A DNA stretch of 64,000 bases from Moniliella sp. 'wahieum' (Eukaryota). The DNA is taken from assembly GCA_003971905.1 (NCBI GenBank), contig RSEE01000030.1, positions 620,001-684,000 on the forward strand, written 5' to 3'. The notes under the pieces are model-generated. The model made no database searches and was not told the DNA's origin. It saw nothing but the letters and a program-made list of their open reading frames with translations. Position numbers and translations under genes: made by a program. Below are positions 1 to 50,850 of this stretch, piece after piece. The stretch's first letter is position 1, and every line of letters starts with the position of its first letter.

Positions 1-2360
1 ATCGGTCATGCGCAGATCGCTTTGCGAGGTGTACTGAGTGTCCTGACTAGCTGAGTCTGAGTTCTGCTTAGGCGCTCAGGCGCTCAGGCGCTCAGGTCTC
101 AGGCTTGGCCATCAAAAAAGACTCGCTCATGGCAGGCTCTATGTTCGGCCCTGTTCGGCCTCACTGGCTCAGTAGCCACTAATGCACTAATCGATCATCT
201 CGATCATCCAAATATGCGTGACATGTGACATGTGACATGGTGCGGATTCAGAATTCAGACCTCAGGATATTCAGACCGAAGCCCGAGGCCAGCAACATGA
301 TGCATGATGTATGATGCATGATGCATGATGCGCGGGGGGTGACGCGTGACGCGTGACGAGTGACGCGTTGATCATGGTGCCACCATATCACCCGCTATCG
401 ATCACTTCGATCACTAGATCACTAGTCACTATAAGTCACTAGTACTCACTATGTATTCACTCGCCACTCGATCAATAGTGGATCATCGATCATCGATCAT
501 TAGTCACGCGCCACGCGTCACGAAGTCACGCTCAGAAACTATCCTCGAATCATTAATCATTAATCATTAATCATTCACCACCATGTGCATCATGCATGAG
601 TGCCTCAGCATCAATTATTAGTCGCTTCGGCCGTACGGTACTACCAGTATACTGCCTGTACTGCCCCGGTGCTGGCGAGCAAATTGCTCCACCGGGTTTG
701 GGTGGTTGAGCGGTCGGGCCTGGTTTGGTCCGCAAAAAGACCGATGTCGATGACGACAAGGTGTTGCGGGGTGGGCGAGCGCAGCTAGCGCGCTACCCCC
801 TAACTTGTGCCGGTGATCGACAGTGTCGCGTGACGCGTTGCCGGTTATACTGGGGTATGTGACACGTGCCCGCCACAGTAGGCCACAGTCGATCTCCCCT
901 AGCGGCTAAAAGATCTAATGTATGATGCATGATTTGCATGATTGAGGCTCTTCAAGCTTCAAGCTTCAAGCGTCCAGCTTCTTTAGGCCTCAGGCGCAGG
1001 AATAGTGTGACGTTGTACCACTTGTGTACCAGCCATGGCAACGGCCCTCTCGGGAATAGGGAAAACCGCAAGAAAACCATCGATTTATCGATTACCGATT
1101 CTTATCGATTACCAGTTACCGGTTACCGGCTCCCCGTTACCGAGGTTACCGGTTACCGGCTTACCTAGTTACCTAGTTACCGATTACCGATTACCGGGGA
1201 CTGGTTTCCGGTTACCGGCAAGGCCTTAGGCATTACGCGCTACGCGTTACACGTTACGCGCCTTCAAGCTTAAGGCCTATGGACCACGGCCAAATAAGGC
1301 GCTAAACGCCTTACAGCTTACGCTCTCGTTTGCCTAACCTCCTGTGGGGCTATGCGTTTTGTCCAACCATGCACTATGGTACTACGCCTGAAATTGGATC
1401 GATTACGCATTACCACGTTACCCCTTCTGCATTTTGCCCCTCCACATCGAGACATTTCTCCTGCGTTGCCTTTCTGGACGCTCGATGGTCGATGCTCGAT
1501 GGTCGATGGTCTTGGCCCCGCCCAGCTGGGTACGTAGCGCCGATCAGATGAGTGTGAATTCCAATCGCTTTTGCACCGGGGGTACATTCGGAACCGAACA
1601 TGTCCCAAGGCAGAAGTGAGTCGCCAGCATTGCACCGCACTCCTGTACTCCACCCTATGTGTTAAGCTTTCAAGCTTCACGCTTTGAGTCTGTCCCCAAG
1701 CCTCGGCCTCACGTGCTGCTGCGGTCCGAGGTCGGTCAAATATGTACTTTCGCTTCAGACTTGGGCCGTTGGAGCGTGGTCGTCCGGTCGTGGACCAGAT
1801 AGAGGGACGGGCTAGCGTCACGCACTGAATCCCACACTTCCGTTTGTGAGTACTGTGAGTTGTGATTCTCCCGCTGACAGGTGATGCATGATGTCTGAGC
1901 ATGGTCATTTCGATCATTTACCACCGATCACCGATCACCGATCATCGATCATGGGCTCTGAATTTAACATTGGAAGCTGGAAGCTAGGGGAAATGCGAAG
2001 CTTCGCCTTTCTTGGTGCGCACGTTATTATTAAGCGGTACCCAAATTCCCGGCCACATACCCTACTGCAACAGAGGTGCAAAAGTCTCCGTGCTGCTGCC
2101 CCATGGGCGGGCGTTGCGGCAAGCGCCACACGAGTAGATGAGTGCGCGCGATGTGCTCTAAAAGCGCCAAGTCGTTTCTCCTTGGCCCTATACTATACCC
2201 TACTGAGTACCTGAGTGTACTGAGTGTACTCAGAACGCCCCGCAAAAGCGGTTCGCGCAAAAGGGATTATCGATTATTGGATACAGCTGTTCCCAAGTCG
2301 ATGCGCGGCAAATGTGGGCAATGTGGACCCGCAGCACAGGGCAATCATGATGCATGATGG
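1..2360. repeat. Tract of palindromic heptamer (xwTNAw'x') tandem repeats
   Basis: (TGTGACA)n 218-239, (CATGATG)n 296-331, (CGTGACG)n 339-367, (GATCATC)n 481-499, (AATCATT)4 548-575, (CTTCAAG)3 950-970, (GGTTACC)n 1115-1216. No credible ORF. Confidence 0.9.
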
Positions 2361-2706: not shown

Positions 2707-3859
2707 CATCTTCTATTACCATATCGGAGGGTGCAAAGAAATCCGCCAACAACCCTACTGCTCCCGACCTGAACCCTACTGCTCCCCGACCTGCACGTGA
2801 CGGCTGGGGGGGGGTGCGCCAACGATCGGGCATATGACAGAGTCGCGTCCTCCCTTAAAATGCCCCCTACCCGTACTCACCGCCGGTGCCCCCATTGCGG
2901 CACCAACGACCACACTGGCACACGGTGCCCGTTCAATCCACGCCCACGGTTGTGCCCCCACTGCCGTCGTCCTGGCCACAAGGCTGCCGCGGAGTGGTGG
3001 AGCAAGCAGGAGAAGTGGTGGAGCAAGAAGGAGATGTGGAAAGCAAGGGGTCTTTGCGACAAAAATAGGGTGGGGGGGGGGGAAGGCCAAGAAGAGGGGG
3101 GGGGGACAAGAAGAGAGGGGGGGACAATCCCTTAGGTGAAAGACGACTTACGGTAGTTTCGGGCTTGGGCTACTTGGTGGATCCGGGCGAGGAGGAGAAG
3201 CCTTTGTGAAGCCGAGGCGGCTGCACGCATGGCAAGGCTGTGTATACGCCGGCTGGAGGGTAGTAACGTGTCTGAAGTCTCCGGGGCTGAGAGACGGGTA
3301 GATGCAGTGGAGCGGACAGACGCTGCCAGGGCTGATGAAGGGCAGCGGCTGTGAAAGGAAAACCCACGCGACATGATTGGCTGGAAACGGTCAGGAGTTG
3401 GGCAGGAAAGGCGGGAAGGGACGAGAATGGTAGGTGTGGGATAAAGGATCCCCACTGATGCTGACTGTTGGTTGACCCTGTTTTGGTAAACCCCTCCTGT
3501 CTAAGCCCCACCGCACTGGCATATAGATGTTGACCGAGCGAAGCTGCTATAGAGTGCGACTTGGGAGCACTCGCGATCCTATGGATCAGCTGCAATGCAG
3601 CCTTCAGACAAGACGTGAAGGCAAAGTGGTGAGCCATAAGTCTTCAAACAACGTCTGTATTGAAGGGAGGGAGACAGGAGAGAGAGAAGGGAGATGAAGC
3701 GAGCAGGGCGTGCGCGCCCTGCGAGCGGAACTCTTCCGCCGGCTAAGTGAGCGTCACCGATCCACCGAGCCGTGCAAGGGAACCCCAGCACTACCCTCCA
3801 ACAGAAGCAGGCGAAGGCTGCGAGGGCAATAAGAATGTCATCCGATAGCACTTCCTCGT
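2707..3859 (+). repeat. Left arm of ~1.1 kb dispersed inverted repeat (partner 10951-12052)
   Basis: CATCTTCTATTACCATAT...AAAGAAATCCGCCAACAACCCTACTG at the outer end and ...AGAATGTCATCCGATAGCACTTCCTCGT at the inner end match the reverse complement of 10951-12052, with internal indels. Confidence 0.9.
2860..3135 (+). CDS. Small CCHC zinc-knuckle protein inside the repeat
   Basis: MPPTRTHRR-CPHCGTNDHTGTRC (CX2CX4HX4C), followed by a second, degenerate knuckle CPHCRRPGH. Confidence 0.5.
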   Translation: MPPTRTHRRCPHCGTNDHTGTRCPFNPRPRLCPHCRRPGHKAAAEWWSKQEKWWSKKEMWKARGLCDKNRVGGGEGQEEGGGTRREGGTIP

Positions 3860-5759: not shown

Positions 5760-6790
5760 TCTTTCTTCGAGCTTCAAGCTTCATATATCATGTCTCTCCT
5801 CTCCATTCTCCGCATTTCAGCGCAACGTTACTGATTACTATACTGCGTGTGCGGCTCTGCATGGTGAAGAGAGGGTCTGTGACATACAACAAAAATGTAC
5901 ACGGCCTAGTACATGAATCATCCAAGAGGCCTGTGGCTCGTATTTGAGGCATTCCGCGAGAGGGAAGCGAGAGACTCCAGTCACTAGTCACAACATGTAA
6001 GAGGCAGTGACCTCGAGGACCGAGCACCCTCCGCGCGGTCCCCACCATACTGAAGCTAGTCAAGACTTAGCGCTTAGCTGCGCTTCTCCAGCTTCGCCCC
6101 GCTACTTTCTTAGCGCCTTTAGTGCCAGGCTCTGCTTTCGCGCTTCCGAGTTTGTGATTCCAATATACACCCAGCTGTTACTAGTGACTGGCCTCGGCGT
6201 CGATGCCATCATGGATGTCACACACACAGCCACATGTCACAGATACGCCACCGAGTACTGTGTATTGACGCACTGTGACATGCATGTGACATGTGATGTG
6301 GGACGAACTAAAGATACGAGTGTAGTCACAAGTCACTAGTCACTCAGGACTCAGTCTGAGTACTCACTATCACTAGATCCTCGATCACTTCGATCACTAG
6401 ATCACTATAGCTTTTCACTACGTCACTAGTCACTAGTACTCACTACTCAGTACTCACTACTCCCTAGCCATGCAGTTCTGTACTTCAGGTTGAAGCTTCC
6501 AGCTTCACCGGCATCGGCACTACCCAGCACCCACACACCCAACTCCAACTCCGCCGCAGTGACTCTGTGACTATAGTGACCTGTGCCGGCAGCCCCATTC
6601 CACCACCAGCCGAGTCCTTTTGACGACCGAGAATCGTCCGGTTGAGCTTGAGAGAGCTTGAGCTCAGCCGGGCACCGTGATCGATCATTTCGATCATTAT
6701 GCATTAGCACCAACATGCATCACCATATCGGGCACCGGTCAGGCCGGCCATGCTGAACGTGTTGAGCTTTGGACGTTGAGTATCTGAATC
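5760..6790. repeat. Tract of palindromic heptamer repeats
   Basis: GTGACATGCATGTGACATGTGA ~6276-6297, (AGTCACT)n 6331-6345 and 6422-6440, ACTCAGT units, GATCATTTCGATCATT ~6683-6698. Confidence 0.85.
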
Positions 6791-7492: not shown

Positions 7493-10400
7493 TTAAGACA
7501 GACCCATCGGCATCCGGCCTAGACGCGGCGCAAATCCTGGCGGCATCAGGTCCGCCCCTTGTGCCGGCAGGGCAAAGTCTGACCCGGGCCCGGAACTAGA
7601 GGGTGCACCGCGGTACATCATCGCCTGCGCTTGCGCCTGTGCTTGCGCCGGGCTCAGACCTTGCATCCCCACCCGCGATGGGATCCCCGGCGGAGGTTGC
7701 CGTCCCAAGCCGAGCATACCAGGGTCGTAGTACGGCGCTTCGGCGGCGTTACCGCCGTACCCGTAAGGCACTTTTTGCTGCTGCGACGAGGCGGCAGCCA
7801 TGATCTGAGCAAGAAGTGGGTTGCTCCCTTGAGCTTGAGCTTGAGCTTGAGCTTGAGCTTGAGCTTGGGCTTGGGCTTGAGCTTGAGCTTGGGCTTGAGC
7901 TTGAGCCTGAGCGTGAGCCTGGGCCTGGGCGTGAGCCTGGGCCTGGGCTTGAGCCTGGGCTTGCGCCTGAGCTTGAGCTTGCGCTTGGGCATGGGCCTGC
8001 CCCGCTCCCACGGACGGGGACTGACCCAGCATTGCCGCTCTGGCCTGGACTTGCTGAGCTTGCTGCACAGCCTGCGCTTCGGCCCACGCCTGTTGTTGAG
8101 CAGTGGGCGCGGCAGTGTCGAACCAAGGCGCGGCAGTGTCGAACCAAGGCGCGGCAGTGTCGAACCAAGGCGCGTTTTTGGCCGCTTGCTGCTGACTTTG
8201 CCAGCGGTAGAGTTGTTGGAGGTACTGGGCATTGGCGCTGGTCGGTTGCGGCGAGTTGGTCTCGTCCCCTCGCTGGGGATACAGTCCATTCATCACTCGC
8301 GACGTGATCGGGTCCAGCGCGAGGCCAGGTGCGACCCCATCTTCCTTGTTCATCAAGCGGGACTGGCGCTCGGCCTCTTTAGATTCCAGCTTGCCCCAGG
8401 CCAGCGACGCGTAGGGGTCAAAGCGGCCATGGTAGGTGACATGCGACGAGCCCATCGGGCCACTCTCAACCAACAAACACGACGCGGCGTGGTCCAAGGC
8501 AGTGGGGCCCACGTGCAACGTGGTGCTCAGCGCACCCAACGACCCAAACCCAGTAATCGTACCAATCCCCAACGCTGCCAACCCAATCGCATACCAGGAT
8601 GAGGAGACTGCAATGTTGGTACGGTCGTCCTTGGTGGACAGCGTGTCTTGTCTCTGCTGCTCGTCCAGGCAAAAAGTAAAGTCATGGTCGTCATACGCAA
8701 AGCACGAGGCCAACGCTTCTACCGTCTCGCCCACATCGACATCCAACGGCAACCGTCCCTTTCGGAGTTCGTCTGGAGTGAGAGGCGTGGCGCGAGTCAC
8801 ATCGGGCCCGACCGCCTGCTCCTCTTGGGTAGGAGCACTGGGCTCCTTCGAAGGCAAGGCCAGCCCAGGAGGCTGAGCTGCTACCACACTCGGCTTGGGC
8901 GAGTCGGCTACCTTGACAACCTCGGCCAGCGACGGTTGGGGCGGGGTGGCAACGACGTCTTCTTTCGCTGGACTGGAGGAGGCCAACACAGAAGGTTTGT
9001 TGGCGGTATCCTTGGTAGTCTCCTTCTTGGCAACCCGTTGCTTCTTGGGTTGCTGTGCTGTTGCTTGCGCCGCTTGAGAATGGGCCAGGGCCGCTGAAAG
9101 AGGCGGAAGCTCTTCCTGTCGCAAGCCGCCCGGTGTTGTTACACGATTGACCGAAGGGCGAACCGGGAGTCCGCTCCCCGACCCCCAAGAAGCCGTCTTG
9201 GGTAGGGCTGTCCACCACTTTCGCTCTCGTGAAGATGGGTGTGGGCGTGGAGGTGCGCAGGTGGATGGGGAGAGTGAGGATGGGCATGGCCATGCGCCTG
9301 GTGTGCAGCCTGTAGGATCGCAGCGGGGGAGGGGGGGGCAGGCAAATGCGCTGGAGGAGCTGGAGGAGGGCGGTCAATGGGCGCACCCCAGGAAGTAAGC
9401 AGTTCTTGTTTGGAAGGCGCGACCACAGTTCGGACCTTGTCAGTGTCCGAAGCAGAAGGACGGAGATGGCGCAGGTCCTCCTTGGTAAACGTGTCCATCT
9501 CGTCCGCCGGCTCATGGACCAGGGTGCAGTCCATATTTTGGCACGGCAAAGCACGCAGGTAGTTGGTGCAGTACTTGTTGGTCCCATAGCTTGCATGGAT
9601 CGTCTTGTCATCTGCACTCTTGGTGCCATCGATTGAAACAATTGCCCGTGCTGCATCTTCTGCCGCTGATACGTCACATAGACACCGATCGACGTGTCCT
9701 GCGTACCCATCACGAGTTTGCTCTTCGACTGACGCCGGCTGATCTCAATGTAGCTGATCCGCCCGTACTGCCCAAAGTAGTCATGCGACTTGAGCGTCGG
9801 GATCAGGTCCTCGGTGGCCAACTTGGAGCTCAAGCCAGTCACGTACACAACGTTGCGCTGCACGATCGCGAGTGCGAGTTGGCGAGGCGGGTGCGGTTCA
9901 TTTGCTCCAGCTCCTTCTTCTCTCGCTCGCGTTGCTTTTTGACCTGACTCAGGTGCTTGATCTCTTCGTTGCTCATCGGGGTGAACTCGACTTGATCCTC
10001 ACTGTACTTACGCCGGCACGCAGGGCAGAGACCATTGAAGTTCTGCATAATGTTGTGCCAGCAAAAGCGACAAATCTAGCCAGGGCAGGACAGGGGGGTC
10101 AGCGGGGGCCGGACCCGGCGGCTGGGGAGAGAGGAAGATACGCACGCGGTAGCCACATGGACAGGGCTTAAAGTTGGAGTCCGTAATGTCAATTTCCTCC
10201 AGACAAAGGGGACACTCCATTTCCTCGTCGTCTTCATCGGACCAGACAGCGTCCTGCAGACGGATCCGCAGGGCCTGGGACAGGTCAATCTGCGACGGCG
10301 GCGGCGGCAGGCCGTGGTGGGAAGAAATGGGGTCGTGGGCATGGCTCTGCTCCTTGGCGGAGACGGCAGCGCCACGGGTGGAGGGCAAGGCAGTTGCCCA

Positions 10401-10950: not shown

Positions 10951-12052
10951 ACGAGGAAGTGCTATCGGATGACATTCTTAGTCCCTTCGCAGCCTCCGCT
11001 AGCTTTTGTTGGAGGGTAGTGCTGGGGTTCCCTTGCACGGCCCTCGGTGGATCGCGGAAGAGTTCCGCTCGCAGGGCGCACGCGCCTGCTCGCTTCATTT
11101 CCCTTCTCTCTCTCCTGTCTCCTTCCCTTCAACTCGATGTTGCCTGAAGACTTGTGGCTCACCTCTTTGCCTTCACGCCTGTCTGAAGGCTGCTTTGCAA
11201 CTCATCCATAGGATCGCGAGTGCTCCCAGGTCGCACTCTATTTCCATCTGCCCAGTCGCGCGAGCCTTCCATCAGCCGTGTCGGTTCTCCGTACCTCAGC
11301 ATGTCGCGTGGGTTCCTTTCACAGCCACTGCCATGCCTCAGCCCTGGAAGTGTCTGTCCGCTCCACTGCATCTACCGTCGCTCAGCCCGGAGGCTTCAGA
11401 CACGTTACTATACCCTGCAGCCGGCGTATACGCAGCCTTGCCACGCGTGCAGTCGCCTCGGCTTCACGCCCAAAGGCTTCTCCTCCTCGCTCGGATCCAC
11501 CAAGTAGCCCAAACCCGAAACTACCGTGAGTCGTCTTTCACCTAAGGGACTGTACCCACCAACCTGAGCAAGCCCCTAGCAGGGCCCGCCTGCGACAGGG
11601 CCGTCGTAAGCCACCTCTGGACCATCGATCATCCTTGCTCCATCCTTCCACCAATTCCCTTTGCCTCCCCCTCTCTTCTTGTCCTTCCCCCCCGCACTTT
11701 ATTTTTGTCGCAAAGACCCCAATTGCTTTCCACATTCCTCTTGCTCCACCGCTCCGCGGCAGTGGCCAGGTCGACGGCAGCGGGGGCACAAACGTGGGAG
11801 TGGATTGATGGGGACCGTGTGCCAGTGTGGTCGTTGGTGCGGCAATGGGGGCACCGGCGGTGAGTACGGGTAGGGGGCATTTTAAGGGAGTGGAGGGACG
11901 CGTCGACGCGACTCCGTCTGTCATATGCCCGATGGTTGGCGCAGCCAGCTTCCCCCCGTCACGTGCAGGTGGGGGAGCAGTAGGGTTCAGGTCGGGGGCA
12001 GTAGGGTTGTTGGCGGATTTCTTTGGGTCCTGCCATATGGTAATAGAAGATG
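10951..12052 (-). repeat. Right arm of the dispersed inverted repeat (partner 2707-3859)
   Basis: Reverse-complement match to 2707-3859, with parallel translations in both arms (e.g. QRLLLLARIHQVAQ.RNYR.SSFT* and WRVVLGFPCTA). Confidence 0.9.
11629..11880 (-). CDS. Zinc-knuckle ORF copy in the right arm (degenerate or frameshifted)
   Basis: MPPTRTHRRCPHCRTNDHTGTRS...GLCDKNK; the last Cys of the first knuckle is lost. Confidence 0.4.
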   Translation of the reverse strand: MPPTRTHRRCPHCRTNDHTGTRSPSIHSHVCAPAAVDLATAAERWSKRNVESNWGLCDKNKVRGGRTRREGEAKGIGGRMEQG

Positions 12053-22419: not shown

Positions 22420-24370
22420 TATCAGGCCTCAGCACGCCCTCGGCCCTCAGGGGCCTTAGGCATGCATCTGAGGTTTGGGAGGGGCCCCCTCTGAAGCGCG
22501 AGTAAAGGTATCAATGTCTTTTTCACGTCAAAACGCGTCTTCAAAAACCTGATGCAACAACGCCATTGCCGCCGGTGCATTATTGCGCTTTACTTCTTCA
22601 TACAGTTTCTCGGCCCCAAAACACTTGACGAGTTCCATCGATCTGGCAGAGGTTTCCATTTGGACAGCGAGTGGAGTTTTCGGAGTGGGGATAAGCGCAT
22701 AAACGCAGATGCGGGTATAACATGACAGATCGTCGCAGGATAGAAGAGGATATTGCGTGTAATAACCGTGTGTATAACCATTTACACTCGGGATGTACTC
22801 CTGTGGTTCGGTTGGTTGCGGGGGTAGACAAATGGTAGCCAATTGCGCCGCGCCCTATGGAACCCTCCTGCAATGGTTTAGGTGATTTCCAGGTGTGGAG
22901 CAGTTGTCGCAGAATCATGAATCACACGTGACGCGCGTGACATTGGGATTAAAGGGCCCTGGAGGCGGAGGGGTGAGGCTGAGGCCGAGGGGGCTCAGCT
23001 GATGCGCTGCTCAGCGCTCAGCCTGAGCGCTCAGGCTGAGCGCTGATGCATGCTGGATGTCCATGCTAGGGCTATTAGCTGTGGCGGTGTGTGGCGTGGA
23101 ACACGTGAAGAAAAAGTGACATGCTTATCATTGCCAAGCACTAATTTCCCGATTCACGAGTGCCTGTACCAAGGCGCAAGGGTACCCTAGGGTGCACCCT
23201 GACGCACCGGCGCTACAAGCTGCAGGCCTTGCGCTGGTGTGACGTGTATGATAGGATCGATGGTCGAGCTAGTCGCAGATCGATACAAAGATGTTCCGCA
23301 CACGCAGGCACCTAATAGTCACTTGTCGCATGGCCCACGCGCCCTAGCGGACAGCGGGGAGCCGGTACAGCAGCCACCGCGCGCGGGTTGCGGTCGGTGG
23401 TTACGACCACCGGCCTAACTCGGTTTCAACGTTCAACGTTCAACACGTTCAACGTCAACGCGTCAACGTTCAACGTTCGTTTTCGTCACTTAGTCACTGG
23501 GGCACGCAGCAAAATGGAGTTAGTCGGGCAGGGTGAAGCAGGGTGCCGGCCGATGGCCGGTTACCGGTTACGGTGACTTTTCAAGCTTCAAGCTTCAAGC
23601 TTCAACTCCTGAGCTTGAGAGCTTGAGCACTCAGGCTGAGCCCTTGAGCTTGAAGCTTGAAGTTTGACGCTTGAGTTTGGAGCTAGAAGCTTGAAGCTTG
23701 AAGCTTGAAGCTTGAAGCTTGAAGCTTGAAGCTTGAAGTGAAGAAGAGTGGAGCCGAGACACGCGGGTGCACTGGACCGCCATGTGGCTTTCGTTCTTAC
23801 CTGCCCAGGCGCTCAGGCCCCTGACCGGTGACCGGTGACTTGACTCAGGCCTGAGAGTCTGAAAGCTGCTACGTACACGATGCTCGACGATCGATATGTC
23901 GATGAAGCAGAGCCAAGCCGTGCACACCACAGCGTCGGTCTGGGGCTGTCTAGGGGGCATGGTACAGGGCATCGTAGAAACTAGTAAGCCTGATAGACCC
24001 TGGTCTAGGCCATCGTGCTGTCGGAGTAGAGAGTAGTAGTGTGGGGTGATTAAAAGGTGATCAATGATTAATGACTAAGGTCGGTGTGATTCACAGTGAT
24101 TCGTGACTATAGGTCACAATCAGATGGGCTTGCCCCGACAGAAGGACAGCACTGCGCCCGAGTACACTGGCAACAGAATCGAAGAAGATGTGCAAGACGG
24201 CAAGCCAGCAAGCCAGCAGCGGTGGTAACCGAGAACTGAGAGCCTATAACCGGCAAAGTGTTATGGTAGACCAGGGAGAGCGGTTATAGTGACTGTAGGG
24301 TAGAGCTAGTCAAGCAATCAAGCTTCAAGCTTTAAGGTGAGCCTCAGGAGTGAGCCTCACTGCTGTGACC
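22420..24370. repeat. Tract of palindromic heptamer repeats upstream of DUF6534-like gene 1
   Basis: GCTCAGC/GCTGAGC 23029-23046, (GTTCAAC)n 23423-23477, (CTTCAAG)n ~23580-23605, (CTTGAAG)7 23690-23738, (GGTGACC)n 23822-23838. A smaller patch lies at 21830-21900. Confidence 0.9.
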
Positions 24371-25939: not shown

Positions 25940-27559
25940 TCGGTCTCCCACCCCATATACCGTTTCCGCGTCCTCATTACCACTTCTGCGACGCGCTCCT
26001 TGATCCCAGTTCTGCTCCTGGCCTGGAGGCCTGAACGAACACCAACCGACTCGTATCCGCTCGTTACCTTTTATGCTCCTTCGCACCTGACTTTCCTTCG
26101 AAATCTCCGCTTTCGTCCCCGTTCTATACTCCTTCATCCTACCAAATCTTCGCCATCTGTGATAACCCTGCTAATCTACCCCTTCCCTCAGACCCGTTCG
26201 TCTATATCTGCTCTGGGCACATTCCCCGGGGCGGCTGCTTCCTCTGCTTCCAAACCCGAGGATCGCCTCACCAGAAGCTCATGGGGGTTAATAGGCAAAG
26301 CCCATACAGCCCCCAATCGTAAGACGAACGTGACGACAGATCACGAACCGAAGACAAGCAATAGGAAAGGAAAGAAACTGCAGGTATGCTCCTGGAAGAG
26401 CGGCCGAGTCGACCGGGGCGCATCCCAGCACACCTCAGCATCATGGTGGAGCAGATGGGTTGACTGTTGCAGGGATGTTTCGAAAATTTGTCATCACAAG
26501 CGGAAGAATATTACTTGTATACCACACCCCCTCGCGCCCCGGCAGCTAAGGATGGCCAATCGGGACGGGAGAGCAGGAATAATAAGAGTGGTCGGAGTGA
26601 AAGAGCGTGGCGGTGGACTGTTGAACTAGTGGGTGGTAGTGGGTACAACATTGTCCCGGGTCGTTACCGAGTATAGAGAACACCGAGGGAAATCGAAGTC
26701 TACAACAAGGTGCGTACTTTATATAAATGCCGGTCACAAAACGGGGAGACTCTCGTCGACGGTGTTTAACGCCCGACGGTGCTTTTGAAGAAGTGATAGG
26801 TAGGAAGATATCTCCGGCTTGTTGCCGTCTCACGATCTCATGTTCCTTCTGTCCCATTGTTATCCTTTTATCCCCGCGTTACGCCCATCTCTGCCCGAAG
26901 GACTTCCCCGCAATAGCTATTTCGGCATCCATTCACCGTGTGGCTGACGTCCGTGTATTGGGTCTCCGGTCTAGGATCTAAAGGGGCTTTTGTTGAACTG
27001 ACCACATGAGTATAATGAGTACACGATCCGAACACGTACGTGTAAATCATCACACAGTTAATGGGCTTTTTTGGAGACTAGACGATAGCCTACATGACTA
27101 TGCCGTATCCCTTCCGCCGTAGTAGTAGTAGACGTGTGAGCTCTGTTCAATTATTAGGGTCTCACGCGTTCAGATAGAAGAAGGTACATGTGTCTTGTTC
27201 CTTTGGTTCGTTATACCTCGGTGTCTACCCTCCGTCAGGCCTCAGGGCGATTGAGATCCAGGTTCAAGAACACAGTTGCCGCGTGTTGAATGGACGATGG
27301 AGAGGCCAATGTCGATGACGATGACCGGCGCGGGTTCATCTCGTACAGAGTACTGTTGGGCCTGAGGGATACGATATCTATATCATTGAAGAAAAGTTTG
27401 ATGCTGACGATGAAGATGGAGGAACAACGTGTCAATACACATCGAGCTGTTCTGTAGTTGTGTGTGTTGGACTGTTCTCTTTGGTTCCGCGGCGTTCAAC
27501 CTCACCACGACGCCTACAAAAAGGGATCAGACCGCTGGCTGATGTTCGGATGTCCAAGC

Positions 27560-28110
27560 TAACGTTTCAAGTGCAATGTACGTTCAGTGATACATGCTTG
27601 ACGTTTAACGAATTTAACGTTTAACGTGTAACATGCGCATGTAACACGCTAATCAAAACTCTGACGCCTGATGATTCGATGATATATGATAGGTGGCTTG
27701 CTGTGATTACGATTAACAAGGTAGCCAGTAGTGGATCAGATGCGTGTGCAAAGAAAGGCTTTGCACGCCACAGAGGTATTCTGGACGTAATGCATTACGT
27801 GTAATCAAAATCCGGAATCGACATAAGCCCGCGTAACCAGTTAATGATCCTGGTTACCCAGCGATGTCCTAAGTGCAGTTATGCAGTGGTAAAGACAGGA
27901 GCTGGGTTGAACTTCAACGTTGAACGTTGATCGATCTTGATCGACTTAATCCCACAGACTAAGGATCAGAAGAAGAAGGAGAAGGGAGAGTGGCACTAGC
28001 CAGGGGGTAAGGATACTGGCGTGGTGCCCAGATGAGTAAGATGGTCAGGAGTGCCGCGGAGGTGGCTGGCCCATAGGACCCTGGTCAACAGATCTAAGAT
28101 CTAAGCCACT
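27560..28110. repeat. Tract of palindromic heptamer repeats
   Basis: GTTTAAC units 27602-27627, TTCAACGTTGAACGTTGA ~27912-27930, AGATCTAAGATCTAAG 28090-28105. Confidence 0.75.
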
Positions 28111-30379
28111 AGTTACATATCTGTGCACCCTTGCCACAAAACCCCGAACTATGTAATGGTCCTAGGCCCAATGTCTATATCGCTGCATAATCCTCTGGCT
28201 TATGATCGATGATCGCGCGGAGTTTGCGTTGCGGCTGGCTTGTGGGACAGCCACTGACTGTGTGGGCGTGTATTCCGTTTTGGCCACTAAATATTAATAC
28301 TTCGCCTTCCTTTGGCGGCCAATACTTCTCATTCTGAGGAGATAAGCCATAGGACCCCCTTCTCATCGGGAGGAGCAAGGTTGGTAACCGATAAGACCGC
28401 GGCAATGCTTTTCAGCACACAGTGCGCCGTAAGCTGCACCTCACTTCTACGAGGCGAAGGCGCCATAGGCCTCGAATGATCCTGTTTTTTCTCGAACAAA
28501 CTTTGATCTGTTGTAATAGGGGGGCCGCATAGCCCTTTCATCTCATCAGGGCTCAGCGAGAGGCAATTATCAAAAGCCCAAGGAGGTGAGTCAAACGGAA
28601 TATTCCTGATGAGTGTGTGCTGGGTGTGGCACATGGAGGAGAGTAGTGTGGCAAAACACTGGTATAGCTCAAGCCCCGGTTCCCTTCGGCGCATGCCTTT
28701 CGATTTTCCTTCCTATATGGAAGGCCGTAGCAATATTATCTAAACCCGCTGTAGATCATAGTACGCCTGTGCGCCTTATGTCTCTAGTCTCTTCTACAGA
28801 GTGAACAAGCGATAGTAGCGATAGCAGCTGACAAAAAAGGGACAAAAAAGGGATGGCCGCGGGGTTGTTGATGCTGATGGGACACTGAAGATTCCATAGG
28901 CCACTGATGATGGATAATATAGTCATGCGGGCTTTGACGCTCAGGGCTGTTGTAAAGAAGCCCCCTGAGGCCCTGAGGACTCAGCCTGAGTGTCGTCTCG
29001 GGAGATGCGTGATGGCACGTAGCACTACTCAGCCTCACGTGAACGTCCTGAATTGTAGCCTCTCTCGTGTAGCTGCTGAGACTTATTCTCTTCTCCTCTA
29101 TCTCTGTCCCTCCCTTCATCTTTCCTCCTCTTCCATCTCTGCTACCGGCAGTACTTCGGTCACCTCTTCAGCAACCAATCCCATTTTGTGGAACTTCTGT
29201 TAACTCTGAACTGCTCCGTCGCATCAGGAGTCAGTCATAGCAATAGTAAAGCTCTCAAGAACGATATTTAATGATCGATAAGACGATAAGATAATGGAGA
29301 AGAGGCAAGAACTCCAGGCATCCGTTTCCGGTGACCACCACAAGTGGTCCAGAGCACCCATCAGTCTTGGATAACATGTGGCCCGACTCACTTAGTGTAT
29401 CGTCCGCAGTGTATCAGTCCGGTACATTCGGCACCTTCCACGGGGTGGGGGGGGTTCTGGCGTTTCTTGAGTCTCCCGGATATATTAGCTATCTTCTCTC
29501 CTTTTTGTAACTCCTCAGAATACCAGTTCCATTACATATCTCGCCAACCCTGCTATATGACTTAGGTTTATGACAGTCTCGTTTGTTCTCCCCCACAACT
29601 TCTCTGTGAAGTCGCAGCCCTTTGAAACCCCAATGGCACTAAGCCAACTAAATATCTCGGAGCATCGGTCCGACAGCAGATGTACACCATAGTATGTGGT
29701 GCATCATTTTCCATCTTATTAACCCGCCGCAATTGTTTTGCCCCTCTCTTCCTTCCCAACCACCATTCTATCCATTGAATTCTATCCATATATGGTATGC
29801 GCTTGGAGAAGACAGCAAAGCAGGAAAGACATATAAGCTGAACTCCTCAGGAGAACGTTCTCTAACTCTCACCAGCGGTCTTGAAGAGAGGGCGTATCAA
29901 CGTATAAATTGCTTGTTTGCATATGTCAGTTTGGTGGAGTGAAAAAGGCGTAAAAGAAAACGCACCATTTCGCACAGTCGGAGACATTGCAGTCAATGCA
30001 TGCCATACCCCATTCCATCAGAAATTTCCATTGCTATGCCTCAGACTCCGTCGATTCGGCTTTACGGGTATAAGGGGCGTATGGCATGTGATGATATAGT
30101 AAGAGAATTACAATCGGGAACTGCGACGGGGCGGTCTATAGGGAAAGTTAGACATATGGAGAGGGATGAGTATTAGCGTAAAGGGATGAAGAACCAAATA
30201 AGGAAAAGCCTGGTGCTGGGGGATAATTGTCGGGAGAAGTACGGCTTCGGGACGGCAGAGGCGATTTGGTTTTTGTGCCGTTTGGACCACACCCACCGAT
30301 TGACCGCCGTTCTCCATAATCAGAACCCAGCACCCACAGTGCGTCCCCCCCGCTCAGGGCAACGCCGTAATGCATAAAC

Positions 30380-38214: not shown

Positions 38215-39630
38215 AGTGCATCAGTACTGACTCAGTACTCAGTACTCAGTATGCATATTGCGCCCCATCGACCATCGGAGTCCTATACCCCACAGCCACC
38301 CCAGCTCGTCGTGACGTCATTCTGGCGGGAAGGCATCATATTGTGCCACCGTTTCGGCTGAGTCAGCGATCAGACTGATCGATGATCTCGCTCCCTTTTC
38401 AGGCTTCAAAGTTGTCACCTTTTCTTGGCCCGGCCAGGGCACGCAGCCATGCTGGGTCCGAAGCGACGCGTGGCTCCCGATGGGCACGTGTGGGAATATT
38501 CATCCCCAAGGGGGTTCGGACGGCGGGTGGCGGCGGTTGGCATGGTGCGAGTGGCCATGAGTGGGGTGAGCACGATGGACGACACAAGCAAACAAGCCAT
38601 CGGTGCATCAGTACTCAGTACTCAGTATCCATCATGCATGCATCATGCAGCAGCTGCGCTCGTCGACATTCAGACCCAGCGTCCCATTCGGCTGTGCTGC
38701 AACAGGCTGCAACTTGCAACACTGTCACTTCAACTTTCACATTTAACCGCCTCCTCGTTCCCATCGATCTTTTGATCGTCACGTTGTGACAATGTCACAC
38801 GACCGCGCTGGCCGAGTTCACTTGGGTACACCCCCACCCTGGCCTGGCCCCGTACCGCCTCAGAAGATGTCTACAGGAGGGGTGAGGTGGATGACACCTC
38901 CTAAGCCCCAGGCCTGAGGCCGTGGGGTGGGGTGGGGGCAGGGGTGCCCTCGGTGGCTGGTGTGGGCTCTGGAGTCGGAGGGGGGAGGCAAGCACCGAAA
39001 TGGGTGGTAGGACGTGCGCGTGAGCGAGAGCAGAGGTGTGAATGTGATCGGCAACATCACCCGTATCATTGTGACACGCGGCATGTGACAGTGTGCTGTT
39101 CGGCCTAGGTCATGCATCATGATCCTGCGGCAGTGCGTGGGCGGAACGCGTACCACGCAGCAGCGGATGGGCGATGGGCGATGGCAGATGGGCGATGCGC
39201 TGGCGGGAGTTCTGGCGGGTGCGCTGGTGCCTCCGATGCAGCTCGCCTTGCGCGCACCGTCCGCGTGCAGGAGGCGGAAATGCATGCTGGCCAGGTGCGG
39301 GAGCCGAAGGCACAGCGAGGATACTGGCGCTGTGCGAACATTTTTGGAGGGGGCGCAGCGCCAGCGGTGAGAACGACAAAGATCGGCAACACGCCCCCCG
39401 CCAGGGAGCATGCGAGGGGCAGGCACTTCAACACACTCGCCATCTGCGGTGGAGAAGAGCGGCTGCCGTGGCAGGCACTGGGCGGGCAGCACAGCGCAGC
39501 CATCTCAGACACCACAGCATAAGGCATGGCTGCCCCTTGCTGCCCCCTTGCTGCCCCCTTGCTGCCCCCTTGCTGCCCCCTTGCTGCCCCCTTGCTGGCG
39601 CCTGCTGCATGTGCATGTGACATGTGACTG
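38215..39630. repeat. Palindromic heptamer patches in a divergent promoter
   Basis: TCAGTACTG(ACTCAGT)3 38221-38250, CATCAGTACTCAGTACTCAGT ~38606-38626, CATCATGCATGCATCATGCA 38630-38649, ATGTGACATGTGAC ~39616-39629. Confidence 0.8.
39529..39597 (+). repeat. 11-bp minisatellite (GCTGCCCCCTT)~6
   Basis: Direct tandem copies visible upstream of the 39787 gene. Confidence 0.9.
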
Positions 39631-45161: not shown

Positions 45162-46264
45162 GGCGGTCAGGTGGCCTAGGGGAGGGTAGGGGAGAGACGA
45201 GGAGACAGAGACACAGCAGGCCGCAAAGCAGGAGCCCAGCACGCCCACAAGGCGCGGCGCAACGGCCGGAGGAGGGGCGGGAGGGCGGGAAGGATGGTGG
45301 AGGGCGGGGAGCGAGGCGGTGAGATGGAGGCGGGAGGAAGGCGGCGGGAGGGGCGGCGGGGGCAGGCACGAGGCAGGCACGAAGGACAAGAAAGAGCCTG
45401 GCCAGCTTGCAGCCCAACTTGGGCTCGACGCCCCAGCCACAGCCGGTGACGCGTGACGCGCCCAGGTGACCGCTGAGGTCACCTGACCAGACGGATCTCA
45501 GCTCTGCTCGAACGCCTCTCAGAATCTCAGCCTCTCAGTCTCAGATCTCAGCAGCGGAGGGGAGCATGCGGCTTGAAAGTTGAAACCTTGATAGCCCAAT
45601 GTGGCCTGGTAGTTGCCTAGTTGCCCAGCCGCACAGACACAAGACGAGTCACGCGTCACTGCTGCACTTGCACTTGCCCCCGCCAGTCCTATCGCGGACC
45701 CCATCCGCTATCCCAGGTCATGTCGCCTCTTCTGTCCCAGTCCAGCCTCAGCACATAACCCCAACGACGTATACACCTCCTCATTCGTATCTCCACTGGG
45801 GCGGACGCTTTGCTTTCCAACAGGCCAGGCCTCATATCAACAACAGCAGCACAGCGGGGGGCACCACTCTTTGTGCGCCAGGACTAGGGCAGGAAGAAGA
45901 GGAGAGAAAGACGGGATGTGGAGGTTCGATTGATGAGAAGAACAGGAGAATCATATGACAGATGGTCAGGAAGAAAGGAAGAAAGAGAACCAAAAGGGAG
46001 AGGGTCGATGCGCATGCGAAAGCATAACAAGCAAAAGGGCTGGAAAAAGCTAAACGGGAAAAAATGGCCCCGGGGGGGAGGGGCTAAAAGCGGGACACAC
46101 ACCACACAGGATGGTGGAACCGTCGCCACATCCCAAGAACGATTGTCGCAAGCGCACAAAAACAGGAGATTGGCCTACTATACACATGCTGGCTCTTCTC
46201 CTAGTTGCACACCTCGCTGAAAAAGAACCCTTTCCGCGCCACGAGCGCTTAAGCACGGACCACC

Positions 46265-50394: not shown

Positions 50395-50850
50395 CAATGA
50401 CCATGATGCATGACGTCAGTGCATCGTCGGTCACTGGTCGCCTGATGCATGATGATGCATGATGCATGATGCATGGTGGCAAGTCGTTGTGGCCGGTGAC
50501 GCGGTGACCGGTGACCGGTGACGGCCACTGAGTACTGAACGTACTGACCGATCAGAGGTCCGATTTCAAAACTGCTCCATACCACAGATCATTGCGAGTC
50601 TCGTGCACTTACGACCACCACCAATGGGAAATGGTGTCTCTGCAGGAATACTATGTAGAGTTCGACGATGATGGATGAGCGCTGTGAGCGCGATGAGCAC
50701 GATGAGCACGATGAACACGATGAACACGATGAGCACGAGACCTGTGAGCAACCGCGGGAGGCTCGTGAGTACTGAGTACTGAGTCTTTTGGCCGATGACC
50801 CTTCTTCAATTCCTCCTCAGGCAGGCCTCTCATATAGATCTCAGGCCTAT
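50395..50850. repeat. Palindromic heptamer tract plus 9-bp (GCACGATGA)n repeat
   Basis: (CATGATG)n 50444-50474, (GGTGACC)n 50503-50522, GAGTACTGAGTACTGAGT ~50767-50784, 9-mer repeat ~50690-50737. Confidence 0.85.

Follow-up and report, generated by a model that had tools for sequence, protein, structure and literature searches.

Palindromic heptamer repeats in the genome of Moniliella sp. 'wahieum' as probable excision footprints of EnSpm-related transposons

Introduction

What writes the heptamer repeats that are found in the spacers between the genes of this fungus? The stretch of DNA that was analysed, called the window here, spans 64,000 nucleotides (contig C30:620001-684000) of an assembly of 69.5 Mb in 223 contigs. 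The closest relatives of its ASF1 are in the Ustilaginomycotina, with 80% to Tilletiaria anomala. A first-pass annotation of the window, made from the letters alone, had described tandem 7-mers that are interrupted palindromes around a central T-N-A. It proposed that they are written by an enzymatic process, perhaps as transposon footprints or by the addition of P nucleotides at opened hairpins. Here, the extent of the pattern, its internal rule and its probable source are examined.

The heptamer pattern and its extent

It is clear that the TNA heptamer pattern is real and that it extends beyond the window, being present wherever the genome was sampled. The window holds 57 perfect tandem 7-mers, compared with a mean of 4.5 and a maximum of 9 in 30 local dinucleotide shuffles. 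Interrupted palindromes account for 39 of them (shuffled mean 0.5, maximum 2), and 37 of these 39 have T-N-A at the centre. The symmetry is absent at other periods in the window (period 9, 0 of 11; period 5, 19 vs 15.8 shuffled). In 40 hand-placed stretches of 10 kb on 37 other contigs, 131 of 244 tandem 7-mers are palindromic (3.0 when shuffled) and 122 are TNA-centred. All 40 stretches contain at least one unit that is templated by its flank in the manner described below. When TNA pairs with the same middle base are compared across 524 kb, only the 4-letter spacer is massively palindromic (510 of 944, vs 17 shuffled). One further repeat of the window, a 6-bp unit in 27 copies that encodes an alternating Gln-Ala tract (7828-7987), is outside this family.

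The enrichment over dinucleotide shuffles that the first-pass annotation had anticipated is therefore borne out, in the window and elsewhere. Its claim of a single rule is overstated, since 18 of the 57 tandem 7-mers of the window are not palindromic. It had also placed 16 units, and 11 of these are exact tandem pairs in position; the remainder are shifted, rephased, single or degenerate. AGTCACT (6422) and TCTAAGA (28090-28105) are 2.3-copy runs that had been read in another phase, the GCTCAGC pair sits at 23009-23022 and not at 23029, and CCTCAGG (988) and TCTCAGA (45539) are single or degenerate in the haplotype of the window. About 14 of 16 flanks had been counted, whereas all 16 possible cores occur.

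Contig C49 is the second haplotype of the window region. It is collinear with C30, with 82-95% identity across long blocks, and alignment of the two contigs provides 155,564 columns usable for indel counts (C49:78001-133600, 60 kb, was excluded for lack of alignment at the expected offset). The haplotypes are separated by 837 clean 1-bp indels in 155.6 kb, and host genes of the window (Arm-repeat, RRM and others) are split across frames. This suggests long-read errors superimposed on a true divergence of about 4%. Could the heptamers also be an artefact of base-calling or long-read assembly? The 1-bp differences and frameshifted genes lend the idea some support. However, for 81 of 147 units the other haplotype has an identical core at the corresponding position, and no unit occurs in 8,403 bases of coding DNA (nine listed coding frames of the window). 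Furthermore, the target duplications of real elements follow the same grammar (see below). Metagenome loci of ASF1 relatives contain 1 unit in 83 kb, although at only 32-62% identity these loci are a distant control and not a test in smut fungi. An artefact is hardly credible.

A core that follows the flank

A site can be written L-TNA-R, where L and R are two letters each. The rule is that L-TNA-R becomes either L-TNA-(R + mirror R)-TNA-R or L-TNA-(mirror L + L)-TNA-R. In 718,904 bases, taken from one haplotype only, isolated TNA-4-TNA units have a core mirrored from R in 142 cases, from L in 118 and from both in 60, compared with 2.2, 2.2 and 0.1 after shuffling. Of the 394 isolated palindromic units, 320 thus have a core that mirrors a flank. 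Palindromic cores unrelated to the flanks number 74 in the same bases, vs 23.5 expected by chance. The middle base is C or G in 211 of 260 flank-templated scars, as these units are called here, and it is usually kept (441 flank-templated units with the same N, 25 with its complement). No recognition motif beyond TNA was found within 40 bases of 238 isolated scars.

These counts bear on the precedents that the first-pass annotation had named, which were elements with 3-bp TNA or TWA targets. Tc4 and Tc5 make a 3-bp TNA duplication. An element of this kind, or of the PIF/Harbinger kind, that left behind two letters of each inverted end would create TNA, a 4-letter palindrome and TNA, which is the form of the scar, and the excess of 74 flank-unrelated units over 23.5 might be its work. 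As the main source it is refuted by cores that follow the flank (260 templated by one side, vs 74 unrelated). In addition, both the 9-bp class of scars and the elements described below point to a duplication of 7 bp, the elements are EnSpm/Tnp2-like, and a low-sensitivity search of the genome gave no DDE_1 or DDE_Tnp_4 match. It is very unlikely that a 3-bp element explains the pattern.

One way to learn more from the scars is to ask which joins they represent. A junction spectrum was built by predicting every join from a full 7-mer on both sides of the break with 4-letter palindromic overhangs. It is limited to sites where L and R are non-mirrored at either letter, and a unit that fits more than one class is counted in each. 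Joins of 7 bp, where one overhang is retained and the other lost, are the most frequent (224 vs 2.0 shuffled). Joins of 8 bp, with one overhang and one more letter (43 vs 0.9), and of 9 bp, with one overhang and two more letters (35 vs 0.2), are rarer. The same junction classes contain 0 to 7 units each for the control cores ANT, CNG and GNC. The 9-bp form has a complete 7-mer on both sides with two mirrored, P-like letters between, from which the duplication must be 7 bp long and the P-like addition two letters. Plain duplications show only modest TNA phasing (14 of 86 are centred, compared with 2 to 9 for the other offsets), which counts against the explanation preferred below.

P nucleotides from flank hairpins are also present in fungal hAT footprints (PMC5873905, in part). 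What if the scars were footprints of hAT-type elements (Ac/Ds, Hermes)? Such palindromes would have the complement of the element-adjacent base at their centre, whereas the palindrome here is even-centred and the join expected from two odd-centred hairpins does not exceed background (2 vs 1.2). A hAT dimerisation-domain match was not found in the genome either, in a search where the control was also silent. A hAT source has very little probability.

The following features of the window (window coordinates, unstranded) illustrate the different classes.

74-104: tandem 8-bp scar units (GC TCA GGCGC TCA GG), with two more 7-bp units in the other haplotype
193-208: 9-bp scar, the entire 7-bp duplication plus two P-like letters
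217-239: TGA-CATG array, core mirroring the right flank
246-259: plain 7-bp direct duplication with a TCA centre
296-368: TGA-TGCA array followed by TGA-CGCG array, shorter in the other haplotype
400-431: site GA TCA CT with 9-, 8- and 7-bp scars stacked
481-501: TCA-TCGA array
548-575: TCA-TTAA array, four copies here and two in the other haplotype
928-943: 9-bp scar, CA TGA TT
950-981: TCA-AGCT array
1109-1218: long degenerate TTA array with cores TCGA, CCGG and CCGA plus an 8-bp unit
1845-1893: 9-bp scar (TG TGA GT) and 7-bp scar (GG TGA TG)
1922-1953: one TCA chain mixing direct (CCGA) and mirrored (TCGA) cores
2155-2163: single site TC TAA AA, a plain 7-bp duplication in the other haplotype
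2202-2359: 8-bp scar (2202), 7-bp scar (2265) and TGA-TGCA pair (2346)
5765-6466: scar cluster in the next spacer
23009-24336: densest cluster of the window, including a TGA-AGCT array of 7.6 copies
27601-28215: scar cluster, whose unit at 28202-28215 corresponds to a single TNA site in the other haplotype
38230-39125: TCA-GTAC arrays; near 39110, a 7-bp scar specific to one haplotype
45446-45725: scar cluster; 45718 is a single site here and a 7-bp scar in the other haplotype
50452-50784: TGA-TGCA, TGA-CCGG and TGA-GTAC arrays

Haplotype differences and repeated hits

Of the clean indels between the haplotypes in the 155,564 columns, 49 are 7 bp long, a peak compared with 20 at 6 bp and 15 at 8 bp. 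Whether indels are exact 7-bp gains at TNA was a check suggested by the first-pass annotation. The peak agrees with such gains and 27 of the 49 fit TNA-4-TNA, but 22 do not, and the direction (gain or loss by slippage) is unpolarised. Ten clean 7-bp indels have a single TNA site as the short allele and a flank-mirrored core in the long allele (2 ambiguous, at window ~72 and 71882). The first scar unit therefore has mirrored letters that are absent from the single-site allele, and it is not a direct copy of adjacent sequence. In 2 clean 7-bp indels a single TNA site is paired with a plain 7-bp duplication.

Chains of at least three TNA units number 218, vs 8 in one shuffle. They include 78 uniform palindromic arrays, 102 degenerate chains and 22 mixed arrays in which every core is palindromic. 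The left core comes from L and the right core from R in 16 of the 22 mixed arrays, and 6 are arranged otherwise. Repeated hits are required for arrays of this kind, and their structure shows that the same TNA has been hit again with more units added. Isolated units and chains together amount to about 0.75 sites per kb in 719 kb, which extrapolates to a genome total of roughly 25,000 scar sites per haplotype.

An explanation that needs no enzyme of this sort is that the repeats are slippage microsatellites, retained or seeded by selection for palindromic protein-binding sites. C49 has the same arrays as the window with different copy numbers, so uniform arrays do vary between haplotypes; 78 arrays are uniform; and scars are clustered in spacers (variance 2.29 at a mean of 0.79 per kb). 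However, slippage copies in the same direction only. It could produce neither a mirrored core from a non-palindromic single site nor the mixed arrays, and selection for binding sites does not sit well with the occurrence of all 16 cores or with the lack of a motif beyond TNA within 40 bases. Slippage is contradicted as the origin, for which this explanation is highly improbable, and is likely to be a secondary cause of array growth.

A family of elements with the same target

A direct link between a transposon family and this type of site was sought with a pattern search (TNA-NN plus an end motif). It gave 412 matches, and an opposed pair on contig C11 was among the 100 matches listed. These opposed ends are 4.85 kb apart (C11:228241-233089), with 83-bp inverted ends that are 93% alike, short subterminal repeats behind both and Tnp2-like remnants in the interior (profile E 2e-14). 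With the C11 end as query, 19 ends are found in the genome. All 19 start with CTCACTG, which places CACTG two letters in, and 18 adjoin NN-TNA-NN in exact register, compared with a background TNA frequency of 0.037 (the TNA-requiring pattern had selected 2 of the 19, whereas 17 ends at 10 independent sites were chosen without that requirement). The family duplicates all 7 bp of its NN-TNA-NN target. TIR elements with 7-bp duplications, which the first-pass annotation had suggested looking for, thus exist and are TNA-centred. The duplication is perfect in five of six two-ended copies, as follows (the lengths of the first four include the duplications).

C34:500340-505284: two-ended copy, 4959 bp, duplication GT TGA TG or its reverse
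C35:43991-48846: two-ended copy, 4870 bp, duplication GT TGA TG or its reverse
C29:72158-77127: two-ended copy, 4984 bp, duplication GT TGA TG or its reverse
C23:154552-159519: two-ended copy, 4982 bp, duplication GA TCA TG
C20:546811-547188: 378-bp miniature, duplication GA TGA TG

The C34, C35 and C29 insertions are at three different loci. The C11 copy, although full-length, has two differing NN-TNA-NN flanks and no duplication, which suggests rearrangement between copies. An insertion at C23:153503 (allele C8:478694) lies in the second TNA of an older scar. The odd end among the 19, on C8, is an allele of a regular C23 end plus two letters equal to the mirror of R. Perhaps these two letters are a P addition, as in a rejoined hairpin, or they may be a slip.

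Over 1.3 kb, the C34 copy shares 99.4% identity with the C11 copy, and this piece gives matches to Tnp2 proteins of Tilletia (E 3e-8). Such high identity indicates a young family, although its frames are broken in the assembly. The C11 and C34 remnants are 22-30% identical to Tnp2 proteins. Of the D-D-E triad with C(2)C and H(3-4)H motifs expected of EnSpm/CACTA transposases, an H-x3-H stretch and the following glutamate align with these proteins and the remainder is broken. No intact transposase was found in the genome.

Are the sites chosen by the family the same as those that became scars? The half-site TGATG occurs at 8 of 12 element sites vs 33 of 238 scars (14%), with a background of 280 in 3637. 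It is the most frequent half-site of scars, at 1.8 times background. The element sites are narrower than the scars, so either the living family is not the sole source or its choice was once wider. The window and 1.04 Mb of other DNA examined contain no end of the CTCACTG family. The connection between elements and scars rests on their identical 7-bp grammar, read from elements and scars at different loci.

Other candidate sources

A PF02992 search of the genome found two further genes, on C17 and at 514 kb of C34, and terminal ends were not found for either. The C34 gene (C34:513262-516872, minus strand) is a TIR-less Tnp2-like gene with three long frames (446, 251 and 543 aa). It lies 8 kb from a TIR copy of another family, the protein search gave no second copy, and it may be intact if the frame breaks are read errors. 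The C17 gene (L117:3681-6724) is dead and is present at the same place in the other haplotype, C62 (L119). In the Tnp2 frame, the two alleles differ by 12 synonymous and 35 non-synonymous codon changes; this is neutral drift, which rules out domestication of the C17 copy. Word-index protein searches with the frames of the two PF02992 genes gave 0 and 1 match. Pfam searches of the genome for MULE, hAT dimerisation, DDE_1 and DDE_Tnp_4 domains gave none, with the control silent in two, and no convincing element emerged when about 0.75 Mb was scanned for inverted ends accompanied by duplications.

Haplotype-specific inserts near the window were considered as the agent and rejected, one being a solo LTR with a 5-bp duplication and the others having no clear ends. 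The solo LTR is an 823-bp TG...CA sequence of the other haplotype (C49:223989-224811) at window 27464-27468. A pair of inverted 1.1-kb inserts (window 2707-3859 and 10951-12052), 81-89% alike and absent from the other haplotype, lacks clear inverted ends or a duplication. Pieces resembling a short repeat from C34 (L118:2880-2968; at least 30 copies among the matches listed, 88-99% identity, many contigs) occur in such inserts. The window also contains duplicates that are 73-76% similar (12148-13104/49391-50345 and 24670-25506/33340-34201), and the frames tested in them have no Pfam match.

A model for the origin of the scars

Taking the evidence together, the heptamer repeats are very probably excision footprints of EnSpm/CACTA-related (Tnp2) TIR transposons that duplicate the 7-bp target NN-TNA-NN. 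Excision would involve a flush cut at the element ends, with each flank sealed as a blunt hairpin in a manner like that of RAG and Transib. Judging from the junction spectrum, the hairpins would be opened about 2 bases 3' of the tip, creating 4-nt palindromic 3' overhangs with R + mirror R on one side and mirror L + L on the other. End joining would mostly retain one overhang and drop the other, which gives the 7-bp scar. Less often, part of the second overhang would also be retained to give 8- and 9-bp scars, or the untouched duplication would be joined. Slippage would afterwards alter the copy number of arrays. The scars persist in non-coding DNA. The living family is presumably one source, and older or unseen relatives with a wider site choice would have made many of the scars.

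An observation that does not fit easily is the disproportion between about 19 ends and the 25,000 scar sites extrapolated per haplotype. This ratio of approximately a thousandfold means that long and heavy turnover would be needed. What if no element was involved? A nuclease, or a transposase acting on the target alone, might break TNA in a staggered or hairpinned form, and repair would then write the insertion. Besides the thousandfold excess of scars, this idea draws on the lack of an element in the window or the 1.04 Mb of other DNA examined, and on the existence of the TIR-less Tnp2 gene (C34:513262-516872). However, for the 9-bp class the complete 7-mer must already lie on either side of the break when hairpins form, as a filled-in target duplication would provide, and real elements bear this same 7-bp duplication. 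A RAG strand-transfer product that is resolved by a target hairpin would have its central base complemented, whereas units with the same N dominate (441 vs 25). An element-free origin is improbable, if less so than the other alternatives.

The footprint explanation retains what the first-pass annotation had proposed in outline, enzymatic writing by transposon excision with hairpin-derived P nucleotides, and this now has the support of the 7-bp indel peak and of TIR elements with TNA-centred duplications. It can be taken further, although only tentatively and with considerable doubt. A low-copy EnSpm-related lineage with RAG-like excision might be a long-acting, genome-wide writer of germline 'coding joints' that revisits its own scars. 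This loop, and not slippage, would then be the main source of the tandem repeats and of variation in regulatory regions; its driver may be the TIR-less Tnp2 gene, retained by the host. Scars lie in gene-adjacent spacers, they create palindromic 6-mers and they vary from one haplotype to the other. They may thus supply regulatory variation continuously.

Comparison with known systems

The scars indicate that tandem repeats can arise by a route other than slippage. At about 0.75 sites per kb over 719 kb, they would also be a genome-scale record of transposase cutting and host repair, and the spectrum of junctions suggests that an EnSpm-related enzyme makes flush, RAG-like hairpins. In the literature searched, which included few subscription journals and passages from the main text of PMC12730594, no description of the heptamer pattern or of a 7-bp EnSpm duplication was found, nor was the cleavage geometry of an EnSpm transposase.

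EnSpm has been grouped with Transib and RAG1, with which it shares catalytic motifs, and duplications of 2-5 bp are given for the clade (PMC12730594, in part). Like fungal EnSpm/CACTA elements (CNIRT6, CMCT clade), the CTCACTG family has PF02992 Tnp2-type remnants, CACTG in its termini and subterminal repeat arrays (PMC12810828, PMC12730594, PMC4423477; each in part). However, CNIRT6 of Cryptococcus neoformans, with CACTG ends, makes 3-bp duplications of variable sequence (PMC12810828), and Pack-CACTA elements leave footprints and also duplicate 3 bp (PMC6379663). The duplication here is 7 bp with a fixed T-N-A centre, which would extend that of the CMCT clade from the 2-5 bp stated in the portion of the source used to a sequence-specific 7 bp. 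Another difference is that two letters lie outside CACTG, whereas EnSpm/CACTA termini start with CACT(A/G) or CA. A footprint stereotyped across the genome also sets the family apart from known fungal EnSpm elements. Because its termini and duplication length depart from the canonical form, the family is not filed as canonical CACTA.

Excision scars have been visible in rice from the comparison of close genomes, as they are here from the comparison of haplotypes. Most of 94 rice excisions carry deletions or filler, whereas here one short product dominates and is tandemly repeated; the same source gives a 3-bp TWA duplication for Harbinger (PMC4423477, in part). Flank hairpins have been established for hAT, Transib, RAG and MULE (PMC5499845, in part). 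Ac/Ds in plants, budding yeast and Candida resembles the present case in its flank hairpins, P nucleotides, end joining and few dominant footprints. It differs in that its palindromes are odd-centred, on the complement of the flanking base, and its duplication is 8 bp, compared with an even centre and 7 bp here (PMC5873905, in part).

The process proposed here would work like the making of a V(D)J coding joint by RAG1/2. For Artemis, hairpin opening is mainly 2 nt 3' of the tip (+2), which leaves 4-nt overhangs (PMC2175297, in part), and the scars have an even-centred palindrome from an untrimmed flank, mostly of two letters, that fits +2 opening (PMC2175297, PMC5499845; in part). Unlike V(D)J joints, they are found in the heritable genome, at thousands of sites, with a duplicated target and far less trimming.
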